Shown piece after piece: positions 1-19,825 of a DNA stretch of 64,000 bases. This stretch comes from Oculina patagonica (lineage: Eukaryota). The DNA is taken from assembly GCF_052425735.1 (NCBI RefSeq), contig NC_135764.1, positions 6,634,001 through 6,698,000 of the forward strand, written 5' to 3'. Below the pieces are notes generated by a model that made no database searches, was not told the DNA's origin, and saw only the letters and a list, made by a program, of their open reading frames with translations. Position numbers and translations under genes: made by a program. Each line of letters starts with the position of its first letter. The stretch's first letter is position 1.

Positions 1-1254
1 TACTAGCTGGAGAACCGTGATATCGACACTACAAATGAGGTTGTTCATTTTCTATGCATTTCTGCATTTGGTGAAGTCAATAACAGTGACTACGAAGTAT
101 GGAGACATCGAAGGTCTGGTGGCATCATACCCTGCATACTCATACCCGAATGCCTCCGGTCCGTTCAAGTCTGTCAGTAAGTTTCTAGGAGTTCCATTCG
201 CCGCTCCGCCGATTGGAGAGCTCAGACTAAAACCACCACAACCGCCAAAAGAGTGGAAACCGAACGTTCGCCCGGCGAAGAAGCATGGAAACGTTTGTTG
301 GCAGGGTAAATATTATGAGCAGATGATCAAGCATTTTGATCCAAATTTTTCGTACAGCGAGGATTGCTTGTATCTCGACGTCTACACCCCAAATGTCAGC
401 TCGAATTTACCCGTAATGGTTTACATTCACGGTGGATCTTACGAGCTAGGAAGTGCAGTCTTGTTTCCTGGCGATATTTTGGCTCTGTACGGCGTGGTAG
501 TAGTTGTCATCCAATATCGTCTGGGTCCATTTGGTTTCTTGACGACGGGTGACTTGGCGGCCCCTGGGAATTATGGAATGTTGGATCAGGTTGAAGCGCT
601 CAAGTGGGTCAAAGAAAACATTGAACATTTTGGCGGGGACCCCAACAAGGTGACCATATTTGGAGTAAGTGCTGGTGGAACAAGTGTAGCCCTACATTTG
701 CTGTCACCCCTATCGCAGGGCCTTTTCCACCAAGCCATCGCAGAGAGCGGAGTGGATTTGAGTTCCTTTGCCATTCAGCCAGTTTCCTACGGCCTCCGTT
801 TCGCTGAAGAGCTCGCTCAGAAGCTGGATTGTACTACAAGAGACCACGAAGCAATGATCGCCTGCATACAGGAATCAAAGTCTCTTCGAGATACCGACTT
901 TTTTTGCATGAAGTATGAGTCGAAGGTTTATCCTGTGCAGTCAAAAAGCCGTATGCATGATTTCAGCGTGGATTTTCTCGGAAACTATTGGAGGGATGAA
1001 GTTCAAATTCGGCGAAGAGATAGAGCAACAACTCACCGATCGATAGCCGTCGTCAGATAGGTGAGGTTTTCAGTAGTTTGGCGTTAATTCCGGTTTGAAG
1101 TGGAGGAGGTCGCTGCTGGCGGCCGCCGACTTGCAAGCCTTGTCTCCTCTTTCTCTCTTACTGGCCTTCGGCCGGCTAAATCAGTTAAAAAAGTGCTTAA
1201 AACGGCCCGCGCAGGCGAAGAAATACAACACATGAGTCGATAAACGTTTCATTA

Positions 1255-1405
1255 AACTTTATTGAGATATTTAGAGCGAAATGTAGTTAGATATGTTATT
1301 TCCAGAGCTTTATTTCAGTAACCCTTATAGATTTCAAAATTTCTTTTGTTCGTCTCATGTCAACAACAATAATTAACCACGAACACATAGGGTGGTCTGC
1401 CTGTG
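1255..1405. repeat. Solo arm of the fold-back MITE family seen complete at 44948-45251
   Basis: Near-identical to 45100-45251 and ending in GGTGGTCTGCCTGTG. Confidence 0.85.
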
Positions 1406-1823
1406 ATGCAACATTGCTGTCAACGCGAGGTCACGTCCCTAACGACCTAGGATGATGACGAAATAGAATGGGCGCTTGTAGCGACCAAATTTGGCCTAAA
1501 AAAGAAGCCTTAAAAGAAGCCCCCATCTCTTGCATTTGTTTTAACTTCAATAATACATCTTTGAAAAGAGCAAGTTTTTTGGTATGGTTTATTTTTGACG
1601 TTTGTAATTTTTAAACGATGTAAGTGCTAGTGGCTATTTATTCGTGTTTTAGTTACGCAATCCATTGTTTGTGCGACGCTTTTTATAGATCGCCTTTTTA
1701 ACATTGTTATATAACGTTTGTAAATGACAAGTCACGTTTTTTCCACGAGATCGCGTGATCACCCACAGCGGAAAGTAATCCCTTGAGAAATTAAAATATT
1801 CCCTTGAGAAATTAAAAACGTCC

Positions 1824-2071
1824 ACACACATGTAAATTAGGAGTTGTGGCACAAATTGTGACAACTCGCTCGGCTCGCCCGGGCTCGCCTCGCTCCTTGT
1901 CACAATTTGTGTCCACAACTCCTAATTTACATGTGTGTGCGGAACGCAAGACGCCTTTCTTACCCCTCTCGCGAAACGAGTTGCAAAAAAGGCGTTGGCG
2001 GCACCTCTAACGGCCCGCAGCAACAGAGAGCGCCACCTGTGTGCTAGATTTATTTTTCAATTGAACAAATA
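1824..2071 (+). repeat. Left TIR (248 bp) with 115-nt terminal hairpin 1824-1938
   Basis: Reverse complement of 17914-18161. Arms 1824-1864 and 1897-1938 pair with a single 1-nt bulge. Confidence 0.95.
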
Positions 2072-2085
2072 TTTTTCTTTAGTAT

Positions 2086-5000
2086 ATGCAACAGATGGCT
2101 GCCGCAAGATATTCGTCAGAAGTTTTGCAAGCTAAGATGGAGGAAAACCTCCGTGAATTTCAAAGAAACCCCCAAAGAAATTTGTCTTTTTCACTCGCCC
2201 ACACCGATTTTAACGAATGGCTTAGAGTATGGAAAATGGACATACCCGAAACTGACACAAACAACAAAGATCTTTTAATTTTTGCAAAAAAACACAAAAA
2301 AAAGTTTTATGATCTTTTGGAAAGCGAAATTGATGACTTACGAAGCTTAAAAGCAAGCTTTGGACTTGAAGTTAAATTTTCGATACAAAGAGACGGAGTT
2401 ACGCAACACATGAACCACTATTTCAGTGAAAGAGAACCGCACGTGTTTTCAAAAAACACCAAAGAAGAAATCGAAAAAGAGTTTGTCAGATTTATCGAAA
2501 AAGCAAAGGGAAAAATTGAGGCTTGGTCAGAGAAGGGCTCGGGGTGGAAAATTGAAAGAATAGAAATGGCGTATATCAATGTCGCGCGTTATCAGCCATT
2601 GAGAGGGGGGAGTTATCTGCCTTTACCACCAAAATTGGCAAACAAAAAAGCAGTTATTAACGTGCAAAACAGGGATAACGAATGTTTGAAATGGGCTTTG
2701 AGAGCTGCATTATTTCCGCCAAGAGATGGGAAAAATCCGCAAAGAACAAGCAGATACCCAGTTGACGACGGAATAAACTACAATGGAATCGATTTTCCAA
2801 CGCCTCTAAAGCAGATTGACAGGCTTGAGGCGCAAAACAACAACCTTGCAATAAATGTGTTTGGATGGGAAGACGACTGTGTGATACCTCTCAGAACAAG
2901 CAAAAAAGAAAATAGCATTTCCCGTATAAACCTTATGTTAATTGAGTCAGGATTAATTCAGCACTACTGTTTTGTAAAAAGAGTATGCGCTCTGCTTTAC
3001 GATCAGACTAAATCACACAACAAAAAACACTTTTGCATGATGTGCTTGACCGGTTTTACAAGAGCAGACTTGCTCGAAAAGCACGAAAAATATTGCAATG
3101 GAGTTAACGGCAGGCCAACAAGAATCGAAATGCCGGAAGAGGGGAAAAACACTATTTCTTTTAAAAACTACCACAAACAAATGAAAGCGCCTTTTGTAAT
3201 TTACGCCGACTTTGAGGCATTGTTAAGAAAGATGCAAGGATGTAAACGCGAAACGGCCGAGGAGCGCCAGAAAAGAAAAGACCTTGGTGAAGAAGTGAAA
3301 GACATGAAGCCGAGTTACACAGACAAAACAGAACAGCACGAGGCATGCGGATTTGCTTACACAGTTGTAAGGAGTGATGGTGAACACGAAAAAACATTTG
3401 TGTACAGAGGACAAAACGCCGTTGAAGTATTTTTGAACTGTCTTTTAAGTGAAGAAAGAAAAATAAGATATGAATTGTCAAAGCCAAAACCTCTTGTGAT
3501 GACGGCAAAAGACTGGGTAAACTTCAAAAATGCAACCAATTGCCACATTTGCGAAGAAACGCTAATGAAACAAAACTTTTTGGACTCTTTGCCAGTTTGG
3601 ATTGGAAACAAAAAGGAGCTTAATTACTTTGGGCAGATGCACAAAAAATGTTATTACAGAAAGGAAAAAGAGGAAAAAAACCTGGATACCGAAGCCCACT
3701 ATAAGCTAAAAAAGCTTGAAAAAGAAACACACAAATTAGCAGCGAAAAACCAAAAAAACTGCTTAGCGTGCCACAAGCCGCTTATCCAGCCGAACTACAA
3801 GGATGTGGTAAAAGACCATTGCCACATAACAGGCAAGTTTCGAGGAGCCGCGCACAACATTTGTAACTTGATGATGAGAATAAATCCAAAAAATGTCCAA
3901 ATACCAGTTGTATTTCACAACCTAAGGGGCTATGATGCGCACCATTTAATGCAGGCAATGTCAAAGATTTCAAAAGAGGCACAGAAAGAGGTAAAATGTG
4001 TCGCAAACAACATGGAAAAATACATCACATTTTCATTTGGCGGACTGCGTTTTATTGACAGCTTAAACTTTCTTCAAGGAAGTCTTGATTCACTTGTAAC
4101 AGCGACACCGAAGGAGTCATTAAATATAACAAAATCTATTTCAACACAGTCTGATGAAAGTTTTGAACTTCTTTGCAAAAAGGGAATCTATCCTTACGAA
4201 TACATGGACTCATGGGAAAGATTTAGCGAAACAAGTTTGCCTGAAAAAGAAAAGTTTTACAGCAAACTTAATGATGAGAACATAACGGATGAAGAGTACA
4301 AACACGCGCAAAACGTGTGGGAAACCTTTGGCTGCCAGACCCTGGGCGACTACCACGATTTGTACGTTAAGACAGACGTTTCTCTGTTGGCTGACGTTTT
4401 TGAAAACTTCCGAAAAATCTGTCTTGAGAAGTACGGGTTAGATCCCGCGAATTATTACACGACGCCAGGCCTTTCTTGGGACGCACTTTTGAAAAAGACA
4501 GGCGTGGAGCTTGAGTTACTTACGGACTATGAAATGCATCTTTTTGTTGAAAGGGGATTAAGAGGCGGAATTTCGATGGTAAGCAAAAGATATGCAAAGG
4601 CGAACAACCCTTATGTTGAGGGATTTGACCCGAGCCAGCCAAAAAAATACATAATGTACCTCGATGCGAATAACCTTTACGGGTGGGCAATGAGCAAGCC
4701 GCTCCCAAAAAGTGGTTTTAGATGGAAAAAGGTTATGCCGACAGAAAAAGAAATAATGACAAAAAAAGAGTTTGCAAAAGCTGGATGGATTTTAGAGGTG
4801 GACTTAGAATACCCGAAAGAGCTGCATGACGCCCAAAACAGCTATCCATTAGCGCCAGAGAAAAAGAAAATAAACAAAGAAATGTTTTCACCTTACCAAA
4901 AGAAAATAATAAAAAATCTTGATTTAAAACTGCCAGAAAGCGAAAAGCTTGTATTGACTCTCGAAGACAAAACTAATTACGTCGTGCATTACGAAACTTG

Positions 5001-5936
5001 CAGTTTTATTTAAAACAAGGAATGAAACTTAAAAAAGTGCACAGGGTCTTAGAGTTTGAACAGGAATGCTGGATGGAGCCCTACATCCGGATGAACACAG
5101 AATTCAGAAAAAAAGCAAAGAACGACTTTGAAAAGAACTTTTACAAGCTAATGAATAACTCGGTTTTTGGAAAAACAATGGAAAACCTGAGAAACCGTGT
5201 AGACATAAGAATAGCGCGAAGCGACGAAACAAAGAAAATAAGAAAATTAGTTGCAAGCCCATTGTATTCAAGGCATGTAATGTTTTCAAACGATCTAGTT
5301 GGAATAGACATGCGAAAAAGCAGGCTTTTTCTTAATAAACCGGTCTACACAGGCATGACCATCCTTGACGTAAGCAAGCTATGCATGTATGACTTCTTTT
5401 ACAACCATCTGAAAAAGGAGTACGGAGAGCGTTGCGAGCTTTTGTATACAGACACAGACAGCCTTTTGCTTGAGATAGAAACAGAAGACGTTTACGCGGA
5501 CATGGCAAAAAACATTGACAAGTACGACACAAGCGACTACCCAAAAGAGCATTCACTTCATTCAAACGAAAACAAAAAGGTGTTGGGAAAAATGAAAGAC
5601 GAATGCGCAGGAAAACTAATTTCAGAGTGTGTTTGTTTGAGGCCAAAAATGTATTCAATAATGACAGAAGACAAAAAAAATATAAAAAAAGCAAAGGGGG
5701 TAAAAGAGTGTGTGACAAAGAATAAGATAGATCATGAAAACTTCAAAGATACACTTTTTCAAAACAAGGAAAGCTTTCACGAAATGCACATGCTAAGAAG
5801 CTATGCCCACGAGATGTATTCAATAGTGGTAAACAAAAAATCGCTGTCGCCTTTTGACTCAAAGCGATGGATAGCGGATGATGGGATACATACAAATGCT
5901 TACGGGTATAAGTTTTGCGAAACAAAGCCTACATAA
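2086..5936 (+). CDS. polB: Protein-primed family B DNA polymerase, split by a 1-nt frameshift near 4993 (ORFs 2086-5013 and 4998-5936)
   Basis: Exonuclease motifs YADFE, FHNLRGYD and YVKTDV. Polymerase motifs YLDANNLYG, KLMNNSVFGKT, YTDTDS, PKMY and KAKGV. An endonuclease VII-like segment DHCHITGKFRGAAHNICN is present. Adding one base gives the expected YVVHYRNLQFYL. Confidence 0.95.
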
Positions 5937-5978
5937 ACATAACGTTTAGAGCTTTTCTGAGCCCAAGGGGCTAAAGCA

Positions 5979-6968
5979 CTAAGTGCTTGGTGGTAACTGT
6001 GTATTTGGAGGAATAACAAGCAATTCTTCACGCACGAAGCCGCGCTTTGGACCATCGTGCAAGTAATAAAGAACTGGCTGATTAGGTTTAGTAACAGACC
6101 TTTCAATGCTGTAGACTTTTAATGACCAAATCGGATCTGTAGCCCTTTTTACGCCGCCTTCCAGCTCGCCAGGTTGGTAGAGAAAGCGCACATTAACGAG
6201 GGAGGGGAGTTTTTTTTCTTTCTTGCCAACAGGTCTTGTATATTTTGAGGACGGTTTTGACGAAACAGCCTTTTCTTTAATTGCAGCAGCAGGTTTCTTA
6301 CCAGTAAGACTGGTTACTTCGTTGTTCAGAGCGGCAACAACTTCGGGAAGCCTTTTTACCCACGCTGTCGACCGCTGGCCAGATGGCAGGTTCATCTCGA
6401 CACCGTACTGATAACCAAACAGGCGCCCTGCCAGTGTTTGATTAAAACGTTCAACAATAGCTTGATCTCTGTGGATATTAACACGCCCGCGTCTAATATA
6501 GGTTTTGTGATTTTCCATTTCTTTGGTAACAGCTCCCATGAATTCGCGACCAGGGTCAACTTGCAGCATCTGTGGCCATTTTAGTGCACTTCGCCTGTAA
6601 ATTGTCTGAAAACCTTTTGCAACCTCAGTTGAATCTTTGGAGGTCAAAGGCTCAGCCTCTTTGAAACGGCTGGCAACGTCAACAACAGTCAGCGCGTATT
6701 TGTAAACTTTTCGCCCTCGCGGCAGTTTGTCGTGTGGCAGAAAAAGAAGGTCCGCCTGGTGGACCGCGTTAGGGGTAGAAACATCGAATTTTGGGCGAGG
6801 AACGTATCGTGGTGCCGGAAGGTAGATCTGCCAAAGGGCCTGCTTAACTAGCCACTTTTTTGCGGCATCTTCGGAAACCTTGGCAGCCTCGGCTAATTTT
6901 TTTATCGCTGCAATTCCCTTCCAGTAGCACTGGGGGCTATAGTAGACTTTCGAGATCTTTGCATCCAT
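5979..6968 (-). CDS. int: Retroviral-like (rve, DDE) integrase of Polinton type
   Basis: Motifs HQADL, YALTVVDVASRF, QVDPGREF and AIVERFNQTL give a D-D-E triad. The ORF is intact (329 aa). Confidence 0.93.
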   Translation of the reverse strand: MDAKISKVYYSPQCYWKGIAAIKKLAEAAKVSEDAAKKWLVKQALWQIYLPAPRYVPRPKFDVSTPNAVHQADLLFLPHDKLPRGRKVYKYALTVVDVASRFKEAEPLTSKDSTEVAKGFQTIYRRSALKWPQMLQVDPGREFMGAVTKEMENHKTYIRRGRVNIHRDQAIVERFNQTLAGRLFGYQYGVEMNLPSGQRSTAWVKRLPEVVAALNNEVTSLTGKKPAAAIKEKAVSSKPSSKYTRPVGKKEKKLPSLVNVRFLYQPGELEGGVKRATDPIWSLKVYSIERSVTKPNQPVLYYLHDGPKRGFVREELLVIPPNTQLPPST

Positions 6969-6994
6969 GCGTATACAAGAAAAAAAAGAAACGT

Positions 6995-7420
6995 TTAAAG
7001 AAACCGAAAGGCAGCGTACCCAAGAGCAAGAGCGCCTGCGCCAACGAACATCAGTTCACCTTGTTTCTGCTGCTCGCTTGGCTGATAAAAATCAGAGAAC
7101 TTGGGTTCTTTCGGAGGAATCATTTGTTTGTCAGGATGTGCCTGGTTGTAGAGTTTGAAAGCGTAGTCTGTGTTCGTAAAGTTCTGTTTCGCTTGCTGTT
7201 TGATCTCATTGTTGGTTTCGATCCAGTCGAGAAGCTTCGTGCGGTCGCGAGAGTACTTCGCGTACGCTGCCTGGTAAGCCTCGAGAGCTTTGTCGTGTCT
7301 TTCTTTTTCTTTCAAAGCGGCGTCATCTCCGCCACCCAAAGCTCGAGCAAGATAGTTGCCGCCAATGAAAGCAGCAGCGTTCAAGATAGCTCCGCCAGCC
7401 ATAATCGCGACGCTTGCCAT
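6995..7420 (-). CDS. Viral protein, 141 aa, hydrophobic N- and C-termini around a coiled coil (putative membrane/virion protein)
   Basis: ATG-initiated, tightly packed in the minus-strand gene block, with Gly/Ala-rich hydrophobic ends. Confidence 0.75.
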   Translation of the reverse strand: MASVAIMAGGAILNAAAFIGGNYLARALGGGDDAALKEKERHDKALEAYQAAYAKYSRDRTKLLDWIETNNEIKQQAKQNFTNTDYAFKLYNQAHPDKQMIPPKEPKFSDFYQPSEQQKQGELMFVGAGALALGYAAFRFL

Positions 7421-7455
7421 TGTGTGTTTTTGTTCTTATATTAAGATATTTTTTT

Positions 7456-7674
7456 TTAATTGGTGGGGAGAATTTTCTGGTCCTCGAGATACTGTTTAAG
7501 TGCAACGCTGCCAGCCACGACGGCTGTGAACTTTACATAGTTCATAAAACTGCTGCTTGGGTCAGATGTGAAGTTTTCTTTCACAACTTTTTTGGCAGCC
7601 CAGCCGATTCCGGCGGCGAGACCTGTAATGGTGGCGGCATCCATGAGTGTTTTCACGAGCTTGTTGTCAGACAT
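7456..7674 (-). CDS. Small viral membrane protein, 72 aa, two hydrophobic segments
   Basis: Segments AATITGLAAGIGWAA and FTAVVAGSVAL. AT-rich upstream motif shared with neighbouring genes. Confidence 0.7.
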   Translation of the reverse strand: MSDNKLVKTLMDAATITGLAAGIGWAAKKVVKENFTSDPSSSFMNYVKFTAVVAGSVALKQYLEDQKILPTN

Positions 7675-7808
7675 GGTGTTTGTTATAAAATAAAAAATAA
7701 ATATTTAAATTGAAAAATAATTTTATGAATTCTTTTAATCTCATCAAAGAGTTCTAATAAAAAAAAAGTTAATTGCTGAAGTCAGAAAGTAAAACAGAAA
7801 TCACTTTC

Positions 7809-8183
7809 TTAAAAACTTTCGATGGTCAAACCAAGATCATCAACCGCAGAATTAAAGATTTTTTGCATTTCAGCAAACACCGCACATTTTGCTTTTACAA
7901 TCATCTCTTTTCTTTTTTCTTCATTTTCTATTTTTTCATACTCTTTTAAAAGCGTTCTTAAATCACAATAACACACGTTTAAACTTTGCGCAGATTTTTC
8001 AGCAATTGCATAAAAATTTTTTAATTTTTCTGGTTCCAGCCGGTTTAAATAGGCTTTTCCCTCATTCAAAGCAGCTGTTGCTCGTACCTCATCTTTTTCA
8101 AAGCATTTTGAAAGCATAGAAAGCACAAAAAAGTTTCCAAAATCCATTGGGACAGACATAGTGTATGTCCTCGTGTCGGTCAT
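7809..8183 (-). CDS. Hypothetical viral protein, 124 aa
   Basis: ATG ORF bounded by AT-rich spacers, preceded by the shared upstream motif. Confidence 0.6.
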   Translation of the reverse strand: MTDTRTYTMSVPMDFGNFFVLSMLSKCFEKDEVRATAALNEGKAYLNRLEPEKLKNFYAIAEKSAQSLNVCYCDLRTLLKEYEKIENEEKRKEMIVKAKCAVFAEMQKIFNSAVDDLGLTIESF

Positions 8184-8241
8184 CGTGTTTTGTATACTTT
8201 AAAAAATCGAATGTTTAAATGAAAATTATTTAATAATTTTT

Positions 8242-8799
8242 TTAATCCATCGGACGGATTCCTCTTTTTGAGCCATTTTGGTTTGTTGGTTGCGGAATTC
8301 TAGAGCCCGTTTGGCGCGTGTCTGAAGAACGCGTTGCAACCCTTCCAATACTTTCTGCTGTAACTGGTGTGTCATCAGTTATAAGAGTTGGCGGAGCTTT
8401 AAATGTTGGACTTCTTTTTTCGTTTATAAAGGCTTTTATGTCTTCGCGTTTCACATAAGTTGTAACGGTTGCAACGCCGATACCAAGCAAAGATATCCAT
8501 TGATTTGTGGTGAGACCGCTTGATTGCGGCTGAGCCTCGGGCGGAGCTGGTTCCGTTACGGCCGGTGGTGTTACACTTCGCTTAGCAGATGCAGATTTCT
8601 TTTCCTTTTCTTTTGCAATTATTGCAGCAGCCTCGACAGCAGCTTTTTTCTGTGCTTCACGAGCCTGTTTTGTTTTTTCAGCTGCAAGCTTGCCAGCAGC
8701 AACTCGCTTTGGATTTTTGGCAGGCTTTGTTGCTGGAGTTGTTGAAGTAACTTGTTTCTGTTCTTCTTGAGCGATCGGAGTTTGTTCGAGCTCGGCCAT
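8242..8799 (-). CDS. Viral protein, 185 aa: basic/Ala-rich N-terminus, Pro-rich linker, single hydrophobic helix
   Basis: KNPKRVAAGK basic motif and WISLLGIGVATVTTYV hydrophobic stretch. Start context TAAATG. Confidence 0.7.
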   Translation of the reverse strand: MAELEQTPIAQEEQKQVTSTTPATKPAKNPKRVAAGKLAAEKTKQAREAQKKAAVEAAAIIAKEKEKKSASAKRSVTPPAVTEPAPPEAQPQSSGLTTNQWISLLGIGVATVTTYVKREDIKAFINEKRSPTFKAPPTLITDDTPVTAESIGRVATRSSDTRQTGSRIPQPTNQNGSKRGIRPMD

Positions 8800-8907
8800 T
8801 TATAATAAAAAAAAATAATATTTAAATAGAAAATTGCTCAGCAAGATTTTTTGCTAAGCAATTGCTAAGCATTGTTCAGTAATTACTTAGCATTTTCTTA
8901 GCATTGC

Positions 8908-9552
8908 TCAGAAAAAATCTTCAGTAGTGTTTGTGTCCGCATCTTTGGAAGCACCTTTGGTTTGCAACTTTGTCGGGACCCCTTGGGCGTCTTTGACGCG
9001 TGCTGCGCACGTCCCCGCGCCAGGCGCGGCTTCGTTTAAAACAATGTGCTTTGTTGTGATGAGCGCAGCATTTGCAACGGCAAGAAAGCGGCCGCATTTC
9101 AAAGCCAGACCGCCTGCCAAAGTGGACAGCTCTTTACTGATAATGTAGTCGTTTTTGAGTTCCTTTTGATAATCATTGACGTCCTTGATATTTACGGCCT
9201 TACCAACGACTTTGGTAACAAGAAAAATAAAGCTGTCAATCAAGCTGTCGGTTGTTTTGGATCCAACGTATGCCTCATATCTCTTTAAGTACTTTTCAAC
9301 TTCTTTATCTGTCAAGCGCTTCACCTGCTCGTGTGTCAGTTGCACACCGATTGCTTCTTTGGCTTTTCCTGTTGAAACAAGGATTGCAAGCTGTTCACGC
9401 AAAGCAGGAATGTCAGGGCCTTGAATGAGTGCCATAGCGCTTTCTGTACTTTCTGGTTCAGCTCCTAGCAGTTCCATTACGGAAGCTAATTCTTGTTCAC
9501 TTGCAGCGCCCTTGACGCTCTCGGGAGGAGAAGTTGCGAACGGGTCGGCCAT
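8908..9552 (-). CDS. Hypothetical viral protein, 214 aa
   Basis: ATG ORF directly downstream of the ATPase, start context TAAATG. Confidence 0.7.
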   Translation of the reverse strand: MADPFATSPPESVKGAASEQELASVMELLGAEPESTESAMALIQGPDIPALREQLAILVSTGKAKEAIGVQLTHEQVKRLTDKEVEKYLKRYEAYVGSKTTDSLIDSFIFLVTKVVGKAVNIKDVNDYQKELKNDYIISKELSTLAGGLALKCGRFLAVANAALITTKHIVLNEAAPGAGTCAARVKDAQGVPTKLQTKGASKDADTNTTEDFF

Positions 9553-9573
9553 TTATTACTCTAAAAAATATGT

Positions 9574-10173
9574 TCAATAAGAAAATTTTGTGCCGTAAGG
9601 GTGGCGATGAGAAATGACAAGATGCGAAAACTTATTTTTTTTTAGCTTCAAAATGATTTCTTTGTAATCCTCATGGGCAAGTTCGCCAGCGTAATCCTCA
9701 AAGATTGCCTTCGTGGTCTTGGCAGAGGGGGTGTAAAAGAAAACGATTGCCGCAACATTTTCGCGGAATGAGGATGTTATGCTTGTCAATTTTTGAGTTA
9801 ACACCCATACGCTCAAACCTGCGTGGCGAGCAGAGAAAGCAAGATTCACCAACTCCCCTGTTCTTCCTTTTACATCTTTCGAAGCAGCACAGTCGTCGAG
9901 GATGATAAGCGTGTTCGTTCCCTCAAAAAGAAATCTTGAAAGCCTTAACAAAGATTCAACCTCGTGCTGCTCGCAAATTAAAACAAAAAATCGAAGATCT
10001 TCCTCAGCAAAGCGATAATAAGTCTTGTTGTGCGCGAACGTCGGGCAGATGAGCACGATGTAGTCAAACTTGCCTCGGAAAGGGCCACAAAGCTGATTGA
10101 CCACGTATCTTGTTTTTCCTGAGTTCGTTGGTCCCACAATGAGGGCGTTGAAGGGTATATTGGCAGGATCCAT
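9574..10173 (-). CDS. A32/FtsK-HerA-type genome packaging ATPase
   Basis: Walker A GPTNSGKT, Walker B LIILDD, and the A32-family motif ARHAGLSVWVLTQ. Confidence 0.92.
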   Translation of the reverse strand: MDPANIPFNALIVGPTNSGKTRYVVNQLCGPFRGKFDYIVLICPTFAHNKTYYRFAEEDLRFFVLICEQHEVESLLRLSRFLFEGTNTLIILDDCAASKDVKGRTGELVNLAFSARHAGLSVWVLTQKLTSITSSFRENVAAIVFFYTPSAKTTKAIFEDYAGELAHEDYKEIILKLKKNKFSHLVISHRHPYGTKFSY

Positions 10174-10218
10174 CTTCGTTCGTATATGTACCTAAGGTAC
10201 ACTTTTTCAAAGAAAAAA

Positions 10219-11472
10219 TTATAAAAGTACAGATTCTAACTGCCTGCCAAGTATATTCATTTGGGCGTCGCTGATTACGTAAATGTGGCAGTTCAAATTA
10301 CCTGAGCCGCTTGCTTTCCTCTCTAGCTCAAGCTGGACACCGTCCTTTGTGTTCACAAGGCGCGTGCCGCTTCCGTGCATCGAGTGGTCAGCCATGGAAC
10401 GCAGATCAATAAGAAGGCCAAACTTGTCTTCTGTGTAAAACTTTTGCAGAGTCATGTGCTGCGTTTTATTTTTTTCTTTCATGTAGAATCTTTTAACTTC
10501 TCCCCAAATGTCCATTCCTTCGATGCCGTTGTTGTACAGCATGTTTGGCGAGCCGTTGACAGTGATGCTTACTTTTGTAAGGTCCGGGTTAATGTACTTT
10601 TCCGAGCTCCTTGCACCTTTGTTATATTGCTCAATAAATAGGAGCAAGATACCTTTCATGGACCTCCTCTGCGGGTTGACCCTTAGATTCAGACGTGTGT
10701 CGGAGCCTTTTGCAAAAGTCACCACTTTAACACGCTGGATGTGGTCGTAAGCGAACTCTTTGCCGCCCGAATAAGCGCTGAACGCTTCATCTGCAATTTC
10801 CTTGCTTCTTATCATCTCGTACTCCAGCTGGATGTTTGTCAACTTGTATTTCAGTTTTGTTGTATCTGAGCCTCTGACCACATGTTCGGCTGCCGCGAGC
10901 TTCAGTTCGAACACAAGATCGTTGTATAGTGCCTGAGGATAAAATGCCCCATGGTCAGTTAAAATCTGGTGATCCAGGCGGATGCGGTATTTATTACCAT
11001 ATAGCTCATTCAGCTTTTTTTCTGCTTCGACTCCTGAAGTTTTCTTATCGCCAGCATTTGAGCGAATTTTGTTAAGGTCCTCGCTCTGAATGCCCTCTGG
11101 CACCCTGTCGTCGCGCTCCTCCTGCGAAAGGAAAAAATCCTCAAATATTTTGTAGATGTCATAGCCAACCGTGTCCTGCACGACGGTGCCTTCGTACTTT
11201 ACAACAAAATCGTCGACCAGAGCTCGGCTGACGTTGTCAACCAGAAAGTTGTTGGCATGGCCTCCGCTCAAGTCGATGTTGAAGCGCAGCGCCAGCGAGC
11301 CAGGCACAATGACCTCGTTTTCGTTCAGCTTGGGCACTGAAACATACAACGTTTCCTCTGGATTGGCTTCTGTGCGGTCAAAAGTGATTCGTTTTACCGC
11401 GCGCTCGGCTTTCAGTGCGCCGAGTATTTTCTCTGTGCGTCCCGGTCGAAGGTTTTCTTGAACAGCAGCCAT
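10219..11472 (-). CDS. Probable double-jelly-roll major capsid protein
   Basis: 417 aa, beta-strand-rich, adjacent to the packaging ATPase. Patterns such as YKLTNIQLEYE, KVSITVNG and FGLLIDLRS resemble Polinton/PLV major capsid proteins. Needs structural confirmation. Confidence 0.72.
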   Translation of the reverse strand: MAAVQENLRPGRTEKILGALKAERAVKRITFDRTEANPEETLYVSVPKLNENEVIVPGSLALRFNIDLSGGHANNFLVDNVSRALVDDFVVKYEGTVVQDTVGYDIYKIFEDFFLSQEERDDRVPEGIQSEDLNKIRSNAGDKKTSGVEAEKKLNELYGNKYRIRLDHQILTDHGAFYPQALYNDLVFELKLAAAEHVVRGSDTTKLKYKLTNIQLEYEMIRSKEIADEAFSAYSGGKEFAYDHIQRVKVVTFAKGSDTRLNLRVNPQRRSMKGILLLFIEQYNKGARSSEKYINPDLTKVSITVNGSPNMLYNNGIEGMDIWGEVKRFYMKEKNKTQHMTLQKFYTEDKFGLLIDLRSMADHSMHGSGTRLVNTKDGVQLELERKASGSGNLNCHIYVISDAQMNILGRQLESVLL

Positions 11473-11538
11473 CTCTCGATTGGTTTTATTGTTAAATTGA
11501 AAAGTTTAATTTGAAAATATATATATATAAATTAAGCG

Positions 11539-12933
11539 ATGGCAACAGGTGGTGATGATTTTGGATTCGAGGACCCTGATTTGGACAAAGATCTTGACCA
11601 CAACAGTGATAACGATGATGAAGAGGGACAAGAGGTCGACACAACCCGACCATTTCAGCCCGGGGAGGCATCCACACCCTACCATGGGGGTGAACAACAT
11701 GAAATGCAAACGATGCAGCACGAACAGAGCGGGCTGCCAGATACATCCTACGACGAAACACCTTTTCTTGAAAGAACCCCTTCGATAAGTGATCTTCAAA
11801 AAGAAAGTTTTTTGCGGCAAAAACTTAAAAAAGCTGTAGACACGATAAAAGGCAAATTCCCCAAAGCAAATTTTGAAAAAATTAGAATTAGAAGAGGCAC
11901 TGGGAAAAATGAGGGGAAAATTGTTGCTATAGGAACTAAAAAAGGCGAGTACAAGATTCTAAAAGATAATGAGTCAGGCTTCATGAAAAACTTTTTAGAC
12001 AGCTTCAAAGATGAACTTGGGCCGTCAGCTGAAGATCTTATTGCTCAAGACAATGAGAGCATAAGAGATGAACGTCAAAGATTAAGAGAAGCTGAAAGTC
12101 AAATACAACAGGCAGAAACAATTGACATGCAGAAAGAAAAAGCCACCCAAGAAGTAGAAGATTTCAGAATAAGAATCGAGCGAATAAATGCCAAGATGGA
12201 ACAACTTGGGTCAAATGTTGAAAATGAATCAGAATTGCGCAGACTTAAGCAACTGAAAAAAAATCTTGAAAAGGATTTTGAAAACAAAAAAAAAGAAGTT
12301 GCTGCTCTTGAAAAACAAGCTAAGCAGAAGGCAAAAGAACAAACACGAGTCGACCAACTAAGGGCAGGCCTCGCTGCCAAAGAGAGCGAAAGAAACACAT
12401 TGCAAGAAAGGCTCAACGACACAAGAGCGTTGGATGATCTAAAAGAAAAAGAAGCCGAGCTGAAGCAACAAAACGAGGAAGATCAAGCTGTTATAGAGGA
12501 TGAGAATGCATCCCCCACTAACAAACAAGCTGCGGAAGAAAGAGTTGCAGAAAGAACCGAGGAGCTCGGGCGTTTGCAAACGCAGATTGCAGAAAGAGAA
12601 AGGGCGCTTCCACTTCGTGAGAGGATCAAAGAGATCTTCAAAAAATATGGCGTGACAGTAACAGCAATACTTCTTGCTGCTGGTGTCACGATTGGTTCTG
12701 TAATTGGTGCCATTACAAACTCTTTGAAGGCCACCGGCAAAGCGTTGGGAAAAGGCCTAAGTGATATTGGCTCAAAGGTAGCATCAGCTCTGCCTGGTCT
12801 CATTGGCTCGATTGCGAAATTTCTTTTCAAAACCGCTGGTCAAGTAATTGGATTTCTTGCAGAGCACACCTGGCTGCTTATCCTTGCTGTGGTTGCTTTT
12901 CTTGTTGAAAAATACATCAAAAAGAGACGTTAG
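11539..12933 (+). CDS. Viral coiled-coil protein with acidic N-terminus and C-terminal membrane helices, 464 aa
   Basis: Long E/K/Q/R heptad region, then GVTVTAILLAAGVTIGSVIGAI and WLLILAVVAFLV followed by a basic tail KKRR. Confidence 0.8.
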   Translation: MATGGDDFGFEDPDLDKDLDHNSDNDDEEGQEVDTTRPFQPGEASTPYHGGEQHEMQTMQHEQSGLPDTSYDETPFLERTPSISDLQKESFLRQKLKKAVDTIKGKFPKANFEKIRIRRGTGKNEGKIVAIGTKKGEYKILKDNESGFMKNFLDSFKDELGPSAEDLIAQDNESIRDERQRLREAESQIQQAETIDMQKEKATQEVEDFRIRIERINAKMEQLGSNVENESELRRLKQLKKNLEKDFENKKKEVAALEKQAKQKAKEQTRVDQLRAGLAAKESERNTLQERLNDTRALDDLKEKEAELKQQNEEDQAVIEDENASPTNKQAAEERVAERTEELGRLQTQIAERERALPLRERIKEIFKKYGVTVTAILLAAGVTIGSVIGAITNSLKATGKALGKGLSDIGSKVASALPGLIGSIAKFLFKTAGQVIGFLAEHTWLLILAVVAFLVEKYIKKRR

Positions 12934-14593
12934 CGCATAAGGGTGTAGAGCAAAGCTGCTGCTCCAACCGCGCCAACAGCAACAGTTGCTTTGTTTATTT
13001 CGTGTGAATCATTGGCTACGGCCTTCGTAGCTTTAGCGCTTTGCGCGTTGCTAGCTGGTGTTTCAGCAGCGCTTGCGGCGGGTGCCTGATTTTTTTTGCT
13101 GTGGCGCTCTTGTGTATAGGATTTGAAGGGTGGCTGTTTGGTGGGTTGATTTTTGATTTTCCTCCGGCCATCAGTTTAAGAGCTGCTTTTTTTGTAGCTT
13201 TATTAACCTCATCATTCACTCCTAATTTCATCCCAACAACAGCCTGCTTAAGCTGGTTATTGTAACCAACAACGCTTTCTGTGTTTATCACCATACGAGC
13301 GGGCATCAGCCAGGCACCTGGGCAGACTGCAAGGTTAAGCCGAACCTTAGCTTCGTCGATGGCTAGTTGGTATCTTTGGACCGACTTTGCCAGATCAGGT
13401 TGCCTTATAGCGTCTTCAACCAACACGAGGAACTCACTTTGCGCTTCCTTTGCACGGCCGCCTGTTCCAAGTATGCTACTTCGAACGTTCACCTGCGAAC
13501 CGAGAATACAGTAGACAAAAGCCTCTATCGACTGGTTTACTCTCGACAAACCTGCCTGAGTAAGCCCTTCAGTGCCGTTAGGACAAAACCAGTCTGCCTG
13601 TGCATATGCAGCGTCGTCTGGCTCGATGTATTGAATCAAGTTACCTTTGCTTGCAGTTCCACCTTCATCCGAAAATTTATCGTAATCGGGGTATTTTGCT
13701 CCAGTTTTGTTTGGTCCAATGTTAGTAATCCAGATATAAACGTTACCAAGTCCGTGGTTTGCGCCTGTTGTGAAACGGAAATCGCTTGACGGGTCGACAC
13801 CGAACTCAGCGCATATTCTTTTGTAAGAAGCCACGTCGTACTTGTTGTCGAACTGGCTAAAAGTGGGGTCGCCTGGCAAGGCGCTTACGCTCTGAATTCC
13901 CCCCATCTGAAACAATATTCGCCTTATCGTGAAATAAACGTGAAAAAGATAAAAATTACGCACAATCGGTGGCAAGCTAAGAGCTGAGTGCTCTTCATCG
14001 AAAATATCTCGACTTATACCGCAGCCTGTTGTCGCGCACCATACCGCAAAGTTAAGTTGCTGTGGCCAATAGCCCATATTTTGGCTAGCAAGCCACCTTT
14101 TTGACTCTTTTCCTGATGTATGCTTCAGTTTTGTTTTTTGAAAAATCTCTCTTAATTTCGTTGTGAAATATTGGTCTGGTGTGACGTAGATGTTGATTTT
14201 GCTGTTAAATATTTTTTTCAAACTCGGTGCGGCTTCGTGAAATCCAACCGCGGGAATTGGCAAAGATGAGCCTTTTGCGCCGCTTGGTGACAGCTGTTGT
14301 GGAAAACCGCCTGAAATTTGATTCACCCCCAGTGCTTTTTTCATCTCTGGGCTCCAATATTTGCTGTCAGAGCCAAAAACATTTATCAAATGGCCTTGCC
14401 CTGCCTTGTAATAAATGTCTGCCGTTGCTGTGTGGTTGTACGCGAACTCAACCTGTGCAACAAATTTTGTTCGGTCAGAGTTTGGATATTTTGCAAGAAA
14501 AGGTTTCCATGCATTGTCTTTTGCCGCTTTAGAAATTGTAGTTGCTTCTGGGGTTTTCATCCACTTCATAAAACCTCTTGTTTTTGCATCCAT
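12930..14593 (-). CDS. Large viral protein of unknown function; probable true C-terminus with membrane anchor reached via a -1 shift at the A8 run (13090-13097)
   Basis: The 525-aa ORF spans 13016-14593. The -1 frame continues NQAPAASAAE...ATVAVGAVGAAALLYTLMR* and its TAA (12930-12932) overlaps the TAG of the convergent gene. Confidence 0.75.
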
Positions 14594-14639
14594 GGTCCTC
14601 TTTTATATTAAACATTTTTTATTTTTATTTAATATAAAA

Positions 14640-15335
14640 ATGGTTGTGCTGACTGTTACCACAAAAGAAAATCCGAACACTGTTTATTTTGACCAGCCTA
14701 TTCCAAAACCAAGCTATATCCGGCTTTTAAGTTGTTCTCTTTACAACAGCTGGAATAGTTTGGAAAAGGATGGAATAGTTTTTTATAAACAAGTGAACAA
14801 GGAAGAAAAGGCGCGTTATATACGGCAAGGAAACTTCTCACTCGATGACATTGGGAGTATTTTTGAAAAAGGATTTCCAGAGAAAAACATGTTTTCTGTA
14901 ACAAAAGGCATTGCAGGCCGTTCATTGATAATAAAAGCAAAAGAGCCCAATTTAAAAACTTTTGGACTGAATGAAAGTCTTATTAAGTTCTTTAATTTGC
15001 CTTGGTTTGAGAATTACGCAAGTATTGAAAAGGAATTTTTTGAAACAATTGAGGTAAATAATGTTTCAAATCCTAAAAATTACTTCATCAACTGTGACCT
15101 TATCGACAAGCAACAAAGCTTGCTAAATGGTAAGCCATCAAGCCTTTTAGCGTTTTTTGACATACGTGGAAAACCGTATGAAAAAGTTTATTACCAAAAT
15201 ACACATTTTAACGTCTTGCGCGACGTTTCTGCTGAAGAAAATGTATCATCTCTGACTCTTTCGATTAGAGATGAGAATGGAAAGCCATTCGATTTTAACG
15301 GCACAAATCTTACATATGAGTTGGAATTGAATTAA
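14640..15335 (+). CDS. Probable minor capsid (penton-like, single jelly-roll) protein
   Basis: ATG at 14640 follows an AT-rich spacer. Motifs YFINCDLI..NG.SSLL..F and LSIRDENGKPFDFNG..YELEL are typical of Polinton/PLV minor capsid C-termini. Confidence 0.68.
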   Translation: MVVLTVTTKENPNTVYFDQPIPKPSYIRLLSCSLYNSWNSLEKDGIVFYKQVNKEEKARYIRQGNFSLDDIGSIFEKGFPEKNMFSVTKGIAGRSLIIKAKEPNLKTFGLNESLIKFFNLPWFENYASIEKEFFETIEVNNVSNPKNYFINCDLIDKQQSLLNGKPSSLLAFFDIRGKPYEKVYYQNTHFNVLRDVSAEENVSSLTLSIRDENGKPFDFNGTNLTYELELN

Positions 15336-15371
15336 ATTAAATACAAAAATAACTTTTATGTATACGAGACC

Positions 15372-16058
15372 ATGTCATCTGCTAATGTTCTCCCGAGTGC
15401 CCCTGCTTATGGTGATCGCGAAGAAAACAGCGTAAAACAAACACTGTATCCCGCTTTGCCAAATCAACCAGAAAACTTTAGGTTAACAAAAATCAATCAA
15501 ATTTGTTCAGAATTTGACAAAGAAGTTGCAAAATACCGAGCTGTTTTGAAAAAGTATAAAAAGGTGAAGTCTTTTTTTCATTATTCCGCAATTTCAATGG
15601 GTGGTTTGTCCAGTGTTCTCTCTGCTTCCAGCCTTGGAACAGCGGTAACAGTCGTTGGTTTGCCGGTAAGCGTTCCTCTCGCAGCATGTGCTGCAATTAC
15701 AGGCGTTTTGTCAGCCGCTTTCACTGGAGCGAGCAAAAAACTTGAACCAAAAATTTTGAAAAATAATGAAATTACTTCGCTTGCTGTTGCCAAACGTGAA
15801 ACTGTCAATAGACTTGTCTCTGCCGCTCTCATTGACAATAAAGTTGATGACAAAGAGTTCCAAATTATTTTGGATGAATATTCTCGTTACATGGCTCTCA
15901 AAGAGACTGTTCGCAGGCACCTTTCAAAAAATTTAAGCCAAAAAAAGTCATCTCCACAGCCGGACATTGAGAAACTGAGACAGGAAATTCGACAAGAAGA
16001 ATTAGATAGGTTAAAAAAAAGAATATCAGCAGAGTCGAAATCAGATTTGAGAAAATAA
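15372..16058 (+). CDS. Viral membrane-associated protein with PSAP and LYPxL motifs and central hydrophobic hairpin, 228 aa
   Basis: VLPSAPAY and TLYPALP near the N-terminus, with a ~45-aa Gly/Ala/Ser/Val-rich hydrophobic region flanked by amphipathic helices. Confidence 0.75.
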   Translation: MSSANVLPSAPAYGDREENSVKQTLYPALPNQPENFRLTKINQICSEFDKEVAKYRAVLKKYKKVKSFFHYSAISMGGLSSVLSASSLGTAVTVVGLPVSVPLAACAAITGVLSAAFTGASKKLEPKILKNNEITSLAVAKRETVNRLVSAALIDNKVDDKEFQIILDEYSRYMALKETVRRHLSKNLSQKKSSPQPDIEKLRQEIRQEELDRLKKRISAESKSDLRK

Positions 16059-16100
16059 ACACTGGATTTAATCTGAGTGTTCAGAAAAATAAAATTAACG

Positions 16101-16187
16101 CATGACACAAATCGTGACATTGTGTTACACACAGCGTGACATTGTGTGACACAGAGCGTGACAGTCACGCGTGACGTTGCGTGACAG
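16101..16187. repeat. Array of GTGACA-containing short repeats
   Basis: About 8 copies of (C/T)GTGAC(A), including a ~22-bp tandem unit. Confidence 0.7.
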
Positions 16188-16202
16188 GTCAAACGAAAGG
16201 GC

Positions 16203-16413
16203 AAAACCCTGGTCGGGGGGTGCTCGTTGGCTGTTTCTTGCCTAGCCCCGGCTAGGACTTTTTCCCCGCCGCTGACAAGGCGGCTGTCCCACATTTTTAC
16301 CTCTGCCGAGGTTTGAAATCCCGAGGAATTTCTGAGCACCCCCACGTTATCAGTAGGGCCGAGGCGGGTTCACCCAGGGGTATCTCCCACTGAAAGGAGT
16401 CCCCCTATACCCC
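16203..16413. other. GC-rich, highly structured non-coding island (candidate ncRNA or cis-element)
   Basis: 10-bp stem 16216-16225/16334-16343 enclosing several hairpins. A second stem GGGGTAT/ATACCCC lies at 16377-16413. Confidence 0.5.
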
Positions 16414-17386
16414 GTAATTCACCATCCGCACAAGCCATTATAACAGGATTCAAGTGGTTGGCCATCCACTACCTCCCTTGACTTCACCAGAATTTGTGAA
16501 CTAACAAAAAATTACGGCCGCGTTAACTTATATATAGTTCACTTTGTCACGTTTTTCACTTGTGGTACCCTTTCACCTATTTTGAGCAAGTACGCATGCG
16601 CTTTTGGGCATCAGGATGATGTCATCATTAATTAGACACTTGGTAAAGTTTGGTAAATAGGCTAAAATGTTGGTGCTTTTCCAAGCGATTTGCTTTATTT
16701 TAACCGAACTTTCTACTCCCGTTTGGCAAAATGAGGTCAGACAGATAACATATCAAGTCGTGGAAGCAATGCTTGAAGCAGAAAAAAAAATAAACAGGCC
16801 CGATTGAGTCCGATGTTTCGGGAAAGTTCTTTCGATCGATCGATAAACTTCTGTGATCAAATCCTGTTATTTCTCGATTTCTTCTCTTCGCTTCACTTCG
16901 GCAGCTTCTGTGGGGGCACAAAAAATTACAGCGCGTTAACTGAGCGTATTTTTTTTGTAATATCTGTTCTGTTTCGTTTTTTATCGGCCCAAACACTAAA
17001 TCCTGATTAGGCCGCCATGTTTCTTTCTGCTCGTCCAAGGGCCTGAGAACTAGAAATATGGTTTCCAGGCTCTCTCTGAAAATGTCACGCAACTCACGTA
17101 AGTCGCTCGCGATTTTGCGTGCCGCTAGCAGGGCAATCATTTTTTTGTGTCTGTAAACGGTCAGAAAAAATGGTTTTAGCGCGTTTAACGTTAGCGAAGG
17201 TTTTTTTAATGTTGTTTTCTTTTATAAATAAAAAAAAAAAAGTCGCAAGCTTAAACCTTTTTTGTCAATTAAAGGTTCGTCGCCCTAAAGTACAATGGTT
17301 GGTTTAAATGATTGGTACGAAGTTCAGTCTGTCGGCTCTTCTTCCGGCAGTTAATTAATTTGTTTACCCATTTTTTTGCTTTTTCT

Positions 17387-17899
17387 TTAGTTCCATTTCC
17401 ACGACTGCTTTCCAGATTTTTTTGTTAGCTTTAGCCAAGATTTGCTTAGCGATTTCAGTTTTTTTTGCCTTAAATTTTCCGGAATTTTTTCAAAATCATA
17501 GACATAGTCGTACACTTCTCCTAACCTCAAAAAAGCTTCATGATATTTTGTTAAAGTAAGATAATCCAACGATTTTTTTGGTAAAACTGTCGTTATTGGA
17601 ACAAATTCTTCGTTTTTTTCACTGTTGGGTAAGTCTTCACTTTTTCCAAAAAGTTCTGGTTTTTTCAGTTTCATACTTTTTTTTAAAGTAAAGTCTCTTT
17701 CCAACAATTCTTCAAAAATTTCTTTGCTAAGCTCTTTAGTTTTCAGTTTTGAAATTGCTACAACCAAGCCGTGTATAAATTTTGTCATGTCAACACTTAC
17801 ATATTGTTGTAAATATCGATCAAAAATTTTTTCGTTTTGGATGTAAAACTTTCTCGTTCTCGGTCCTTTTGGTTGAAAAACATCTCTCGTTGGCTCCAT
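17387..17899 (-). CDS. Hypothetical basic viral protein, 170 aa, reading inward from the right TIR
   Basis: ATG lies 14 nt inside the TIR boundary, mirroring polB. Lys/Leu-rich. Confidence 0.65.
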   Translation of the reverse strand: MEPTRDVFQPKGPRTRKFYIQNEKIFDRYLQQYVSVDMTKFIHGLVVAISKLKTKELSKEIFEELLERDFTLKKSMKLKKPELFGKSEDLPNSEKNEEFVPITTVLPKKSLDYLTLTKYHEAFLRLGEVYDYVYDFEKIPENLRQKKLKSLSKSWLKLTKKSGKQSWKWN

Positions 17900-17913
17900 T
17901 TACCCTGAGGTGT

Positions 17914-18161
17914 TATTTGTTCAATTGAAAAATAAATCTAGCACACAGGTGGCGCTCTCTGTTGCTGCGGGCCGTTAGAGGTGCCGCCAACGCCTTTTTT
18001 GCAACTCGTTTCGCGAGAGGGGTAAGAAAGGCGTCTTGCGTTCCGCACACACATGTAAATTAGGAGTTGTGGACACAAATTGTGACAAGGAGCGAGGCGA
18101 GCCCGGGCGAGCCGAGCGAGTTGTCACAATTTGTGCCACAACTCCTAATTTACATGTGTGT
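17914..18161 (-). repeat. Right TIR (248 bp) with terminal hairpin 18047-18161
   Basis: Reverse complement of 1824-2071, with no differences seen by eye. Confidence 0.95.
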
Positions 18162-19825
18162 CGTCCCTTGAGAGTAGACAAGAATGTTCCAAATTTTGCC
18201 CCACATAACTGCTATTCTTCTATTTTCGCTTGTAAACAAGCAAAAAAAGTCGCAAAAACGAGACACGGACATACAGAAAGCCTCCGACTCAATCTACTAT
18301 CGGTTCTATGGTGATCTGCGGTGGGCGCCAGTTGTGGACAAACACTTTCTTCTTGACACGCCACGAAATCTGCGAAAGAAAGAAGAATTCAAGAAAGTGA
18401 AGTTGATGATCAGTTTCAACAGTCAGGAGGGTGGGAACGCTCTTGGGACTACGCAAAGTGTGGACAATGGAGTAAGTCCGTTATTTTTCAGGCAATTTGT
18501 AACAAAGCTTGCCCATGGGCGAAACAGCAGGTGAGTTGCGATTTTGTTGTCAGATTAATCGTGTAATACTATCGCTTCCAGATCGGCTTTGATCAGTGTA
18601 CGTAGCTCCATGTTTTATATCTATAACTGTACTTACAGAAGATCAGCTTTTAACGTGCGTTTTCTTACTGGGTGCTTTTTTTTGTTAAATATAACCACCT
18701 ACAACAAATGTTTCGTCTCTTAGGGAAGAGAATGCTGACCTCATCGCGGACGCGTTGGAGTTCATGTACACCCCATGGCCTGACAACAGTGATAAATACG
18801 CACTAAGAAGCCAACTTGTAGACCTCATCGGTGATTACATCTACTTTGCACCAAGTCACGAGGTCGCTGATTTTCACAGCAAAGTTGCTCCAGTGTACAT
18901 GTACGAGTTCGCCCATCGGAAAACGATCGGTAACAAAAATAAGGAATGGATGGGTGTGGTTCATGGTGATAACAAACCTTACGACTTTGGATTTCCTTTT
19001 CTTCCTGGAACTTCTTTAGATTATGACGCAGTCGACAAAAACGTCAGTTCGTTTATCATGGAAGCGTACACAAACTTCGCCAAGACCGGCGATCCAACAC
19101 CAAAGCCAGTCAGCGGTGTTACGTGGGAGAGGTACAACTCCAGTCACAGAGCTTACCTGCGAGTTGACGCTCATCCCAAGATGGCGGCGGCGTTTGCTCC
19201 TCGGCGAATGGCTTTCTGGAATGATTACCATCCTAAACTGGTGCAAGTGAAATTTGATACTAAAGATGAAACGGTCAGCGGTGCTAGTACAGCTGTTGCC
19301 CTGAAATTGTTCATCCAGCTTGCTCTTGTCCTCATTTTAGTGATAATTCATTGAACTAAGTTTAAGTGGATAAAAGAGAAACGTGAGATAATTCGCAGGG
19401 GTAGAGAGATAACATTACCATTGATTAAGGTCCCAGTCGTTTTGTATTTTAGTGTATCGCACGAAATCTCAGTTAGCTTGATTATCACAGTCGATGTTTT
19501 CTGAAACATTCAAGAATTTTAAATGACACAGGAAGAAATTATATTATGAGTAAAAAGGTAAAAAATAATTTTGATATGAGCTAATAACATGCAACTTGTG
19601 TTTGATTCCAATTGAAAGAAATGTTGTGGGTGTTAACATGTAGAATTTTTATTCCTGGAATAAATAAGTGAAAATTTTGTTCAAAATTCAAACTTCTTTA
19701 ATTCCTTTCTTTTATTTAATTAATTCCGTGGTCCTTTGGAAGGAACGCCATTCGATTTCTAAAAATATCTCGGCATCATTTTGGTCCTGAACATCATTAA
19801 TTACGCTGGGTAAATAAATTTGCGT

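Follow-up and report, generated by a model that had tools for sequence, protein, structure and literature searches.

A Polinton/Maverick-type virus nested in a Helentron-like element within a carboxylesterase exon of Oculina patagonica

Results

The window, i.e., the whole stretch of DNA analysed, comprised 64,000 nucleotides of the 529-Mb assembly of Oculina patagonica (GCF_052425735.1, contig NC_135764.1; C7:6634001-6698000), the one assembly used throughout. In this window, exon 1 of a carboxylesterase gene was interrupted at 875-18255 by a rolling-circle-type element of approximately 1 kb, which was itself interrupted by an endogenous virus (1824-18161). This nested arrangement and its coordinates were confirmed, and the analysis demonstrated the boundaries and duplications, the families of copies, and the fact that the composite occurred only once. 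The three layers described in the initial annotation were recovered; a fourth had been overlooked, the middle element being itself a composite with half of a foldback miniature inverted-repeat transposable element (MITE).

Esterase gene and gene cluster

The part of esterase exon 1 preceding the insertion (35-874, plus strand) spanned 280 codons, included the GVSAG serine motif and matched Pfam COesterase (E = 1.3e-97). The remainder of exon 1 (18256-18530, plus strand) matched COesterase positions 258-323 and was 97% identical to paralog L062, and exon 2 (18724-19354, plus strand) followed a GT-AG intron at 18531-18723. Excision of 875-18255 resulted in the junction IQE-KRDTDIQ, with the closest paralog, L062, reading IQG-KRDTDIQ. 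Paralogs were in register across the empty site in nine of 11 cases, and the other two were mis-anchored by two bases; restoration of the esterase frame by this excision, as initially annotated, was thus in exact agreement with the empty sites of paralogs.

Without the insertion and with its single intron, the esterase ran for 581 residues to the stop with no internal stop, and hence showed no frame decay. The open frame was rejected as stand-alone proof of the boundaries, as many other cuts near 875 and 18255 also remained open; the outer boundaries were fixed because the paralogs provided the empty site. With the insertion in place, the frame read on into the element and stopped at 1060, ahead of what we take, from the esterase family, to be the positions of the later catalytic residues.

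Eighteen paralogous matches to the esterase exon were located in one cluster (C7:6.57-6.76 Mb). The other esterase-like open reading frames (ORFs) tested in the window all matched COesterase (10/10), and at least eight more carboxylesterase genes or pieces were observed on both strands at 24700-63200.

Endogenous virus

The virus (1824-18161; 16,338 bp) was bounded by 248-bp terminal inverted repeats (TIRs), the left one (1824-2071, plus strand) being identical to the right one (17914-18161, minus strand), and by the 5-bp target-site duplication CGTCC on the left (1819-1823, plus strand) and on the right (18162-18166, plus strand). Excision of 1824-18166 rebuilt an internal tandem repeat of the middle element with a 21-bp unit (1772-1823, plus strand), as had been claimed: the third unit, split by the virus and resuming at 18167, was restored, and the top sister copies of the element read alike at that place apart from an A in place of the C at 1819.

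A gene predicted to encode a protein-primed DNA polymerase B together with an endonuclease VII domain (2086-5936, plus strand) was divided into two frames, 2086-5013 and 5022-5936 (DNA_pol_B_2, E = 9.6e-7; Endonuclease_7, E = 2.4e-7). A putative retroviral-type integrase (5979-6968, minus strand) matched Pfam rve with E = 2.5e-6 and 28.1 bits, below the cut-off of 32.6, and a putative A32-like packaging ATPase (9574-10173, minus strand) matched Pox_A32 (E = 7.5e-11). The ORF at 10219-11472 (minus strand; 417 residues) is likely a double jelly-roll major capsid protein, a candidate to be taken as a lead only: its Atlas feature matches to viral clusters were 0.97-0.99, with capsid families on 10-24% of the cluster members and recognition below threshold. 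Among the 16 virus ORFs there was no Pfam match to a capsid, nor to a cysteine protease or a minor capsid protein; one ORF matched unnamed Atlas clusters. Judged by its terminal repeats, duplication, polymerase, integrase and ATPase families, and 97 termini in the genome, the insert is of the Polinton/Maverick type.

The first 116 nt of the TIR formed an imperfect palindrome, as did each virus end among the 97 termini. The end palindromes of the window copy (1824-1939 and 18046-18161) folded at -47.9 kcal/mol (z = -14.3), with none of 200 shuffles as good. Two facing dinucleotides in the palindromes varied across virus copies, in matched and unmatched forms.

Middle element

The middle element (875-18255, minus strand; 5' end at 18255 and 3' end at 875) measured 1038 bp once the virus and one copy of its target duplication were discounted. 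The asymmetric 13-bp subterminal inverted repeats of the initial annotation were present, the 3' repeat (895-907, minus strand) at 20 nt from the end and the 5' repeat (18240-18252, minus strand) at 1-3 nt from the end; both were shared by sister copies, with T-run length variants in the 3' repeat. Terminal hairpins had also been claimed. The 5' hairpin (18223-18246, minus strand), overlapping the 5' repeat, was upheld (-6.7 kcal/mol; z = -3.2; one of 200 shuffles as good); the weak 3' stem-loop (881-891, minus strand), with a 4-bp stem and a 3-nt loop, was no better than chance (-1.1 kcal/mol; 68 of 200 shuffles folded equally well). Read on the minus strand, the element began with T, and its 5' 13-bp repeat folded with the neighbouring sequence.

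The 29-nt motif of the 3' end had 217 exact matches in the genome, and the 5' end had 115 matches with at most one mismatch (reversed control, 0 for each). Both ends were fixed across the 29 best sister copies. The window copy differed from the majority of its sisters by four substitutions and a private 42-bp deletion and, with 0-8 substitutions in the sisters, is therefore a typical member of the family. The left target had at least two A in 39 of 42 copies, and the right target at least five A after GTCG[C/A] in 37 of 39 copies, which bore out the proposed A/T-run target. No target duplication beyond the A run was found in the copies checked, and two A at the junction were ambiguous between element end and AA duplication. 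The genome comparison suggested at the outset returned a multi-copy, dispersed and young family with common ends.

The reading that the element behaves as a non-autonomous Helitron2/Helentron, its membership of Helentrons proper being unproven, is supported by its high copy number, by ends that are fixed and bear asymmetric 13-bp repeats and a 5' hairpin, and by its targeting of T runs. The Helitron2/Helentron hallmarks initially assigned to it stood as regards end structure, targets and copy number; the matching autonomous partner was missing from the places compared (see Discussion). Long family copies were considered as autonomous forms and discarded, as they contained unrelated inserts instead.

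Elsewhere in the genome, an autonomous Rep/helicase family (L156/L157, L182/L183) with a frame of 2495 residues was flanked by T-rich sequence and had, close to each end, a subterminal repeat of 11 bp, i.e., the same end layout as the middle element with other sequences. It was present in at least nine places with identical score, and looks young.

Foldback arm and private inserts

The right arm of a foldback MITE of a family with 7-bp target-site duplications occupied 939-1405, with one target copy, ATGCAAC, following at 1406. Both MITE junctions recurred exactly in 26 of the 29 sisters, copies that lie at unrelated sites, and the subfamily therefore appears to have spread while carrying 467 bp of another transposon. 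Another subfamily differed between element positions 65 and 532, where it had approximately 0.8 kb of other sequence; copy L144 contained that sequence plus a whole foldback MITE at the same site, with the 7-bp duplication ATGCAAC. Duplications of 7 bp were found in all four distinct complete MITE copies, stand-alone ones included, and the MITE end motif had 460 matches in the genome. Insertion, deletion and then amplification is the simplest reading of the MITE arm.

Sister copies held single private inserts of 1.9, 2.9, 3.7, 5.9 and approximately 10 kb, and nesting is hence ordinary in this family; its large passengers look private to single copies. The 5.9-kb insert (L188:1439-7304) had terminal inverted repeats and TTAA flanks, the 2.9-kb insert (L189:1024-3934) lay in TTAA, and the 1.9-kb insert (L190:877-2782) had inverted ends and TA flanks. 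The 3.7-kb insert (L140:1942-5618) was of the long interspersed nuclear element type, and that of approximately 10 kb (L141/L193) contained a gag gene and an assembly gap.

Distribution of virus copies

Virus termini were counted by exact match, which missed ends changed within the first 32 nt (e.g., the right end of the C4 copy). The 97 exact termini formed 40 pairs and 17 single ends, i.e., at most 57 places. A 5-bp duplication flanked 39 of the 40 paired copies with no base fixed at any position, which fits a retroviral-type integrase, and the flanks of different virus sites were mostly unrelated. The sole pair without duplication (C9:7576582-7595732; L047, L046) may reflect a rearrangement involving two copies. 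At C1:3460119-3497261 and C3:392126-456472, virus ends separated by 37 and 64 kb had matching 5-bp duplications, and two virus copies (L077/L078, L096/L097) lay within tandem repeats.

No other virus place was inside the middle-element family among the 55 testable ones (one further place was without flank), with an upper 95% bound of approximately 5%; a flat model predicted 0.03-0.15 of 56. The search for other virus copies at the same site of this family, proposed in the initial annotation, therefore returned none. The virus-element junction was found once only among 40 scored of 1401 candidates, and once only among the flanks of 96 virus ends. No large size was repeated among 45 paired distances between element ends.

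Two public runs labelled coral metagenome contained part of the stretch, and no RNA run was listed as containing it. Six of 24 public runs, all in the form of contigs, were compared with the site. None of the contigs listed spanned the boundary between esterase and element; the pieces were short, and the paralogs 97% alike. Contigs bridging the empty site matched L062 or other paralogs, with no window-specific letter at the two nearest diagnostic places.

Discussion

Comparison with known systems

Helitron2 elements, in the available portion of their description by Bao and Jurka (PMC3627910), have asymmetric repeats of 8-15 bp, the 5' one 0-2 nt and the 3' one 20-30 nt from the end. HINEs, according to the available part of Thomas et al. 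(PMC4067079), have the 5' repeat 2-4 nt from the end and an uncertain number of terminal T, with the 3' repeat of mite HINEs at 38-60 nt. As far as these accounts and those of DINE-1 elements extend, the middle element resembled all of them in the asymmetry of its 13-bp repeats, a 5' hairpin into which part of the 5' repeat folds, the 5' T, a T-run target without clear duplication, the internal tandem repeat and the lack of coding capacity. Its 3' repeat at 20 nt fits the range cited for Helitron2 and not that cited for mite HINEs. Unlike the elements in those excerpts, it had a 3' stem of just 4 bp; it also carried one half of a foldback MITE and, in the window copy, a virus.

Polintoviruses are already known in stony corals (PMC11131425, in part). 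The virus resembled Polintons and Mavericks, as the consulted extracts portray them, in its predicted polymerase B, integrase and packaging ATPase, its likely capsid, long TIRs, length of 16 kb and many copies. Vertebrate Mavericks are described in the relevant section of PMC8097293 with 6-bp target duplications and AG or AGT end repeats; in contrast, the virus had a 5-bp duplication (39/40 pairs) and ACACAC ends. It also differed from the Polintons and Mavericks of those extracts in the 116-nt palindrome at each end, the lack of an identified protease, and a polymerase that is here in two frames. Virophages and Polinton-like viruses nested in transposons, with palindromes inside their terminal repeats, are reported for Halocafeteria in the accessible part of 10.64898/2026.07.28.741278. 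In that protist, on the same partial account, palindromes occur mostly with elements lacking polymerase B, whereas the present case is an animal element with polymerase B.

The MITE at 939-1405 resembled Galileo, a foldback-like element of the P superfamily (PMC4168063, in part), in its long inverted arms and 7-bp duplications, a resemblance only; unlike Galileo as given there, the four duplications seen did not match the GTANTAC consensus. A narrow literature search found no report of a Helitron carrying a Maverick.

Formation of the nest

The nest was very probably formed by separate chance insertions in sequence. For the order of insertion, the enzymes involved and the tolerance of the allele, we infer the following course. 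The insertion of a foldback MITE into an earlier version of the element, 1.4 kb long, would first have generated a 7-bp duplication. Loss of one MITE arm together with 0.8 kb of element sequence by deletion would have followed, and the resulting form would have been copied to dozens of sites. Next, one element copy would have been pasted into the A run in exon 1 of the esterase gene, the likely agent being a Rep/helicase acting in trans; this element alone would truncate the esterase after residue 280. The virus integrase would finally have put the virus in that element copy through a 5-bp staggered cut with no evident sequence preference. The persistence of the allele is probably owed to the many close esterase paralogs. 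Both copies of CGTCC have C at 1819, where the top sisters have A; this C was absent in 29 of 29 sisters and was shared by L144. The virus therefore entered an element that already had C at 1819, which does not tell entry in place from entry in a donor copy.

Several results weigh against this account. One assembly cannot show the order of events at the esterase site. A search of 39 of the 113 Rep/helicase places (18 on both sides and 21 downstream only, by BLAST, profile and motif) revealed no autonomous partner sharing the ends of the element, a further pattern search yielded none either, and this absence, together with the weak 3' hairpin, means that rolling-circle movement rests on end structure. 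A partner of the kind defined for Helentrons, with an identical subterminal repeat of at least 11 bp plus a Rep/helicase fused to an endonuclease, was found in none of the 39; comparison of 104 Rep places with 146 and 97 listed element ends gave one within 30 kb, a separate short copy and no partner. Virus copies also touched repeats of these kinds. On C13 (L184/L185, C13:9168733-9186306) a virus copy was inside a whole foldback MITE with the duplication ATCTACG, the MITE lying in a tandem repeat; on C4 (L139:1637-3499, C4:54559636) a distance of 437 bp separated a virus end from a sister of the middle element that is young and 1.4 kb long; and on C2 a virus end was approximately 330 bp from a diverged relative. 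Such contacts were a little more frequent than in the flat model, the cases being noticed after the fact. They are what would favour a preference of the virus for the middle-element family or for its kind of region, with one copy in a related MITE and two at less than 500 bp from family members. The C13 copy was rejected as a second nest in the middle element, as the MITE around it stands alone and has a 7-bp duplication of its own. With none of the 55 other testable places inside the family, 39 duplications without a motif and mostly unrelated flanks, such a preference is very improbable. Sequence-specific targeting of the family is not supported and is excluded above about 5%, and the earlier proposal that this repeat family is a safe site for the virus is not supported on the same counts; a mild regional bias of insertion is possible.

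The initial annotation also considered that the virus could be moved as Helentron cargo. This is possible in principle, as the element ends match those of sister copies; movement was not seen, and the junction occurred once among the candidates and flanks examined. The corresponding history, in which the virus first integrated into a donor copy at another locus and rolling-circle transposition then brought a copy of the 17.4-kb composite into the exon, the donor being lost or absent from the assembly, would draw on those intact ends, on a subfamily that had already spread with 467 bp of MITE inside, and on the presence in the genome of Rep/helicase genes with long open frames (113 matches), two of 11 tested proteins having a C-terminal endonuclease as in Helentrons. 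Against it, there was no second composite, no recurrent large size among the 45 paired copies and no matching autonomous partner in the places searched, and the virus, of which there are at least 40 bounded copies, has a putative integrase gene of its own; this history is accordingly given little credence beside separate insertions. Marginally less improbable, and still unlikely, is that the middle element belongs not to the rolling-circle elements but to the cut-and-paste MITEs, its repeats being short and its target duplication AA/TT. The two unassignable A at the junction, the unfound partner and the weak 3' hairpin would agree with this, whereas the repeats are asymmetric (20 nt vs. 1-3 nt), with the 5' one folding with its neighbour as in the definition of Helitron2 in the seen portion of PMC3627910; an identical T ambiguity is described for HINEs in the corresponding portion of PMC4067079, and the genome also contains an autonomous Rep/helicase family whose ends are arranged alike though different in sequence. 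An assembly artefact would explain why no read or contig crossed the junctions in the public runs examined; it would require the exact 5-bp duplication, the paralog register and the family-typical ends all to arise by error, and is the least probable of all, close to negligible.

Implications

The locus is a clean yet ordinary nested insertion within a redundant gene cluster, and all three mobile parts belong to already known kinds. It is well preserved and allows three mobile families to be ordered in time, and the exact ends of the three families are now usable for annotation. It provides an example of a Helentron-like family that appears to have spread while carrying part of another transposon. 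Were the composite to move, a 1-kb Helentron shell would carry a 16-kb DNA virus without the viral integrase, which would give the virus a second route of spread. For specialists on Polintons, the 5-bp duplication of the virus family and the 116-nt palindromes at its ends may be of greater interest than the nest itself.

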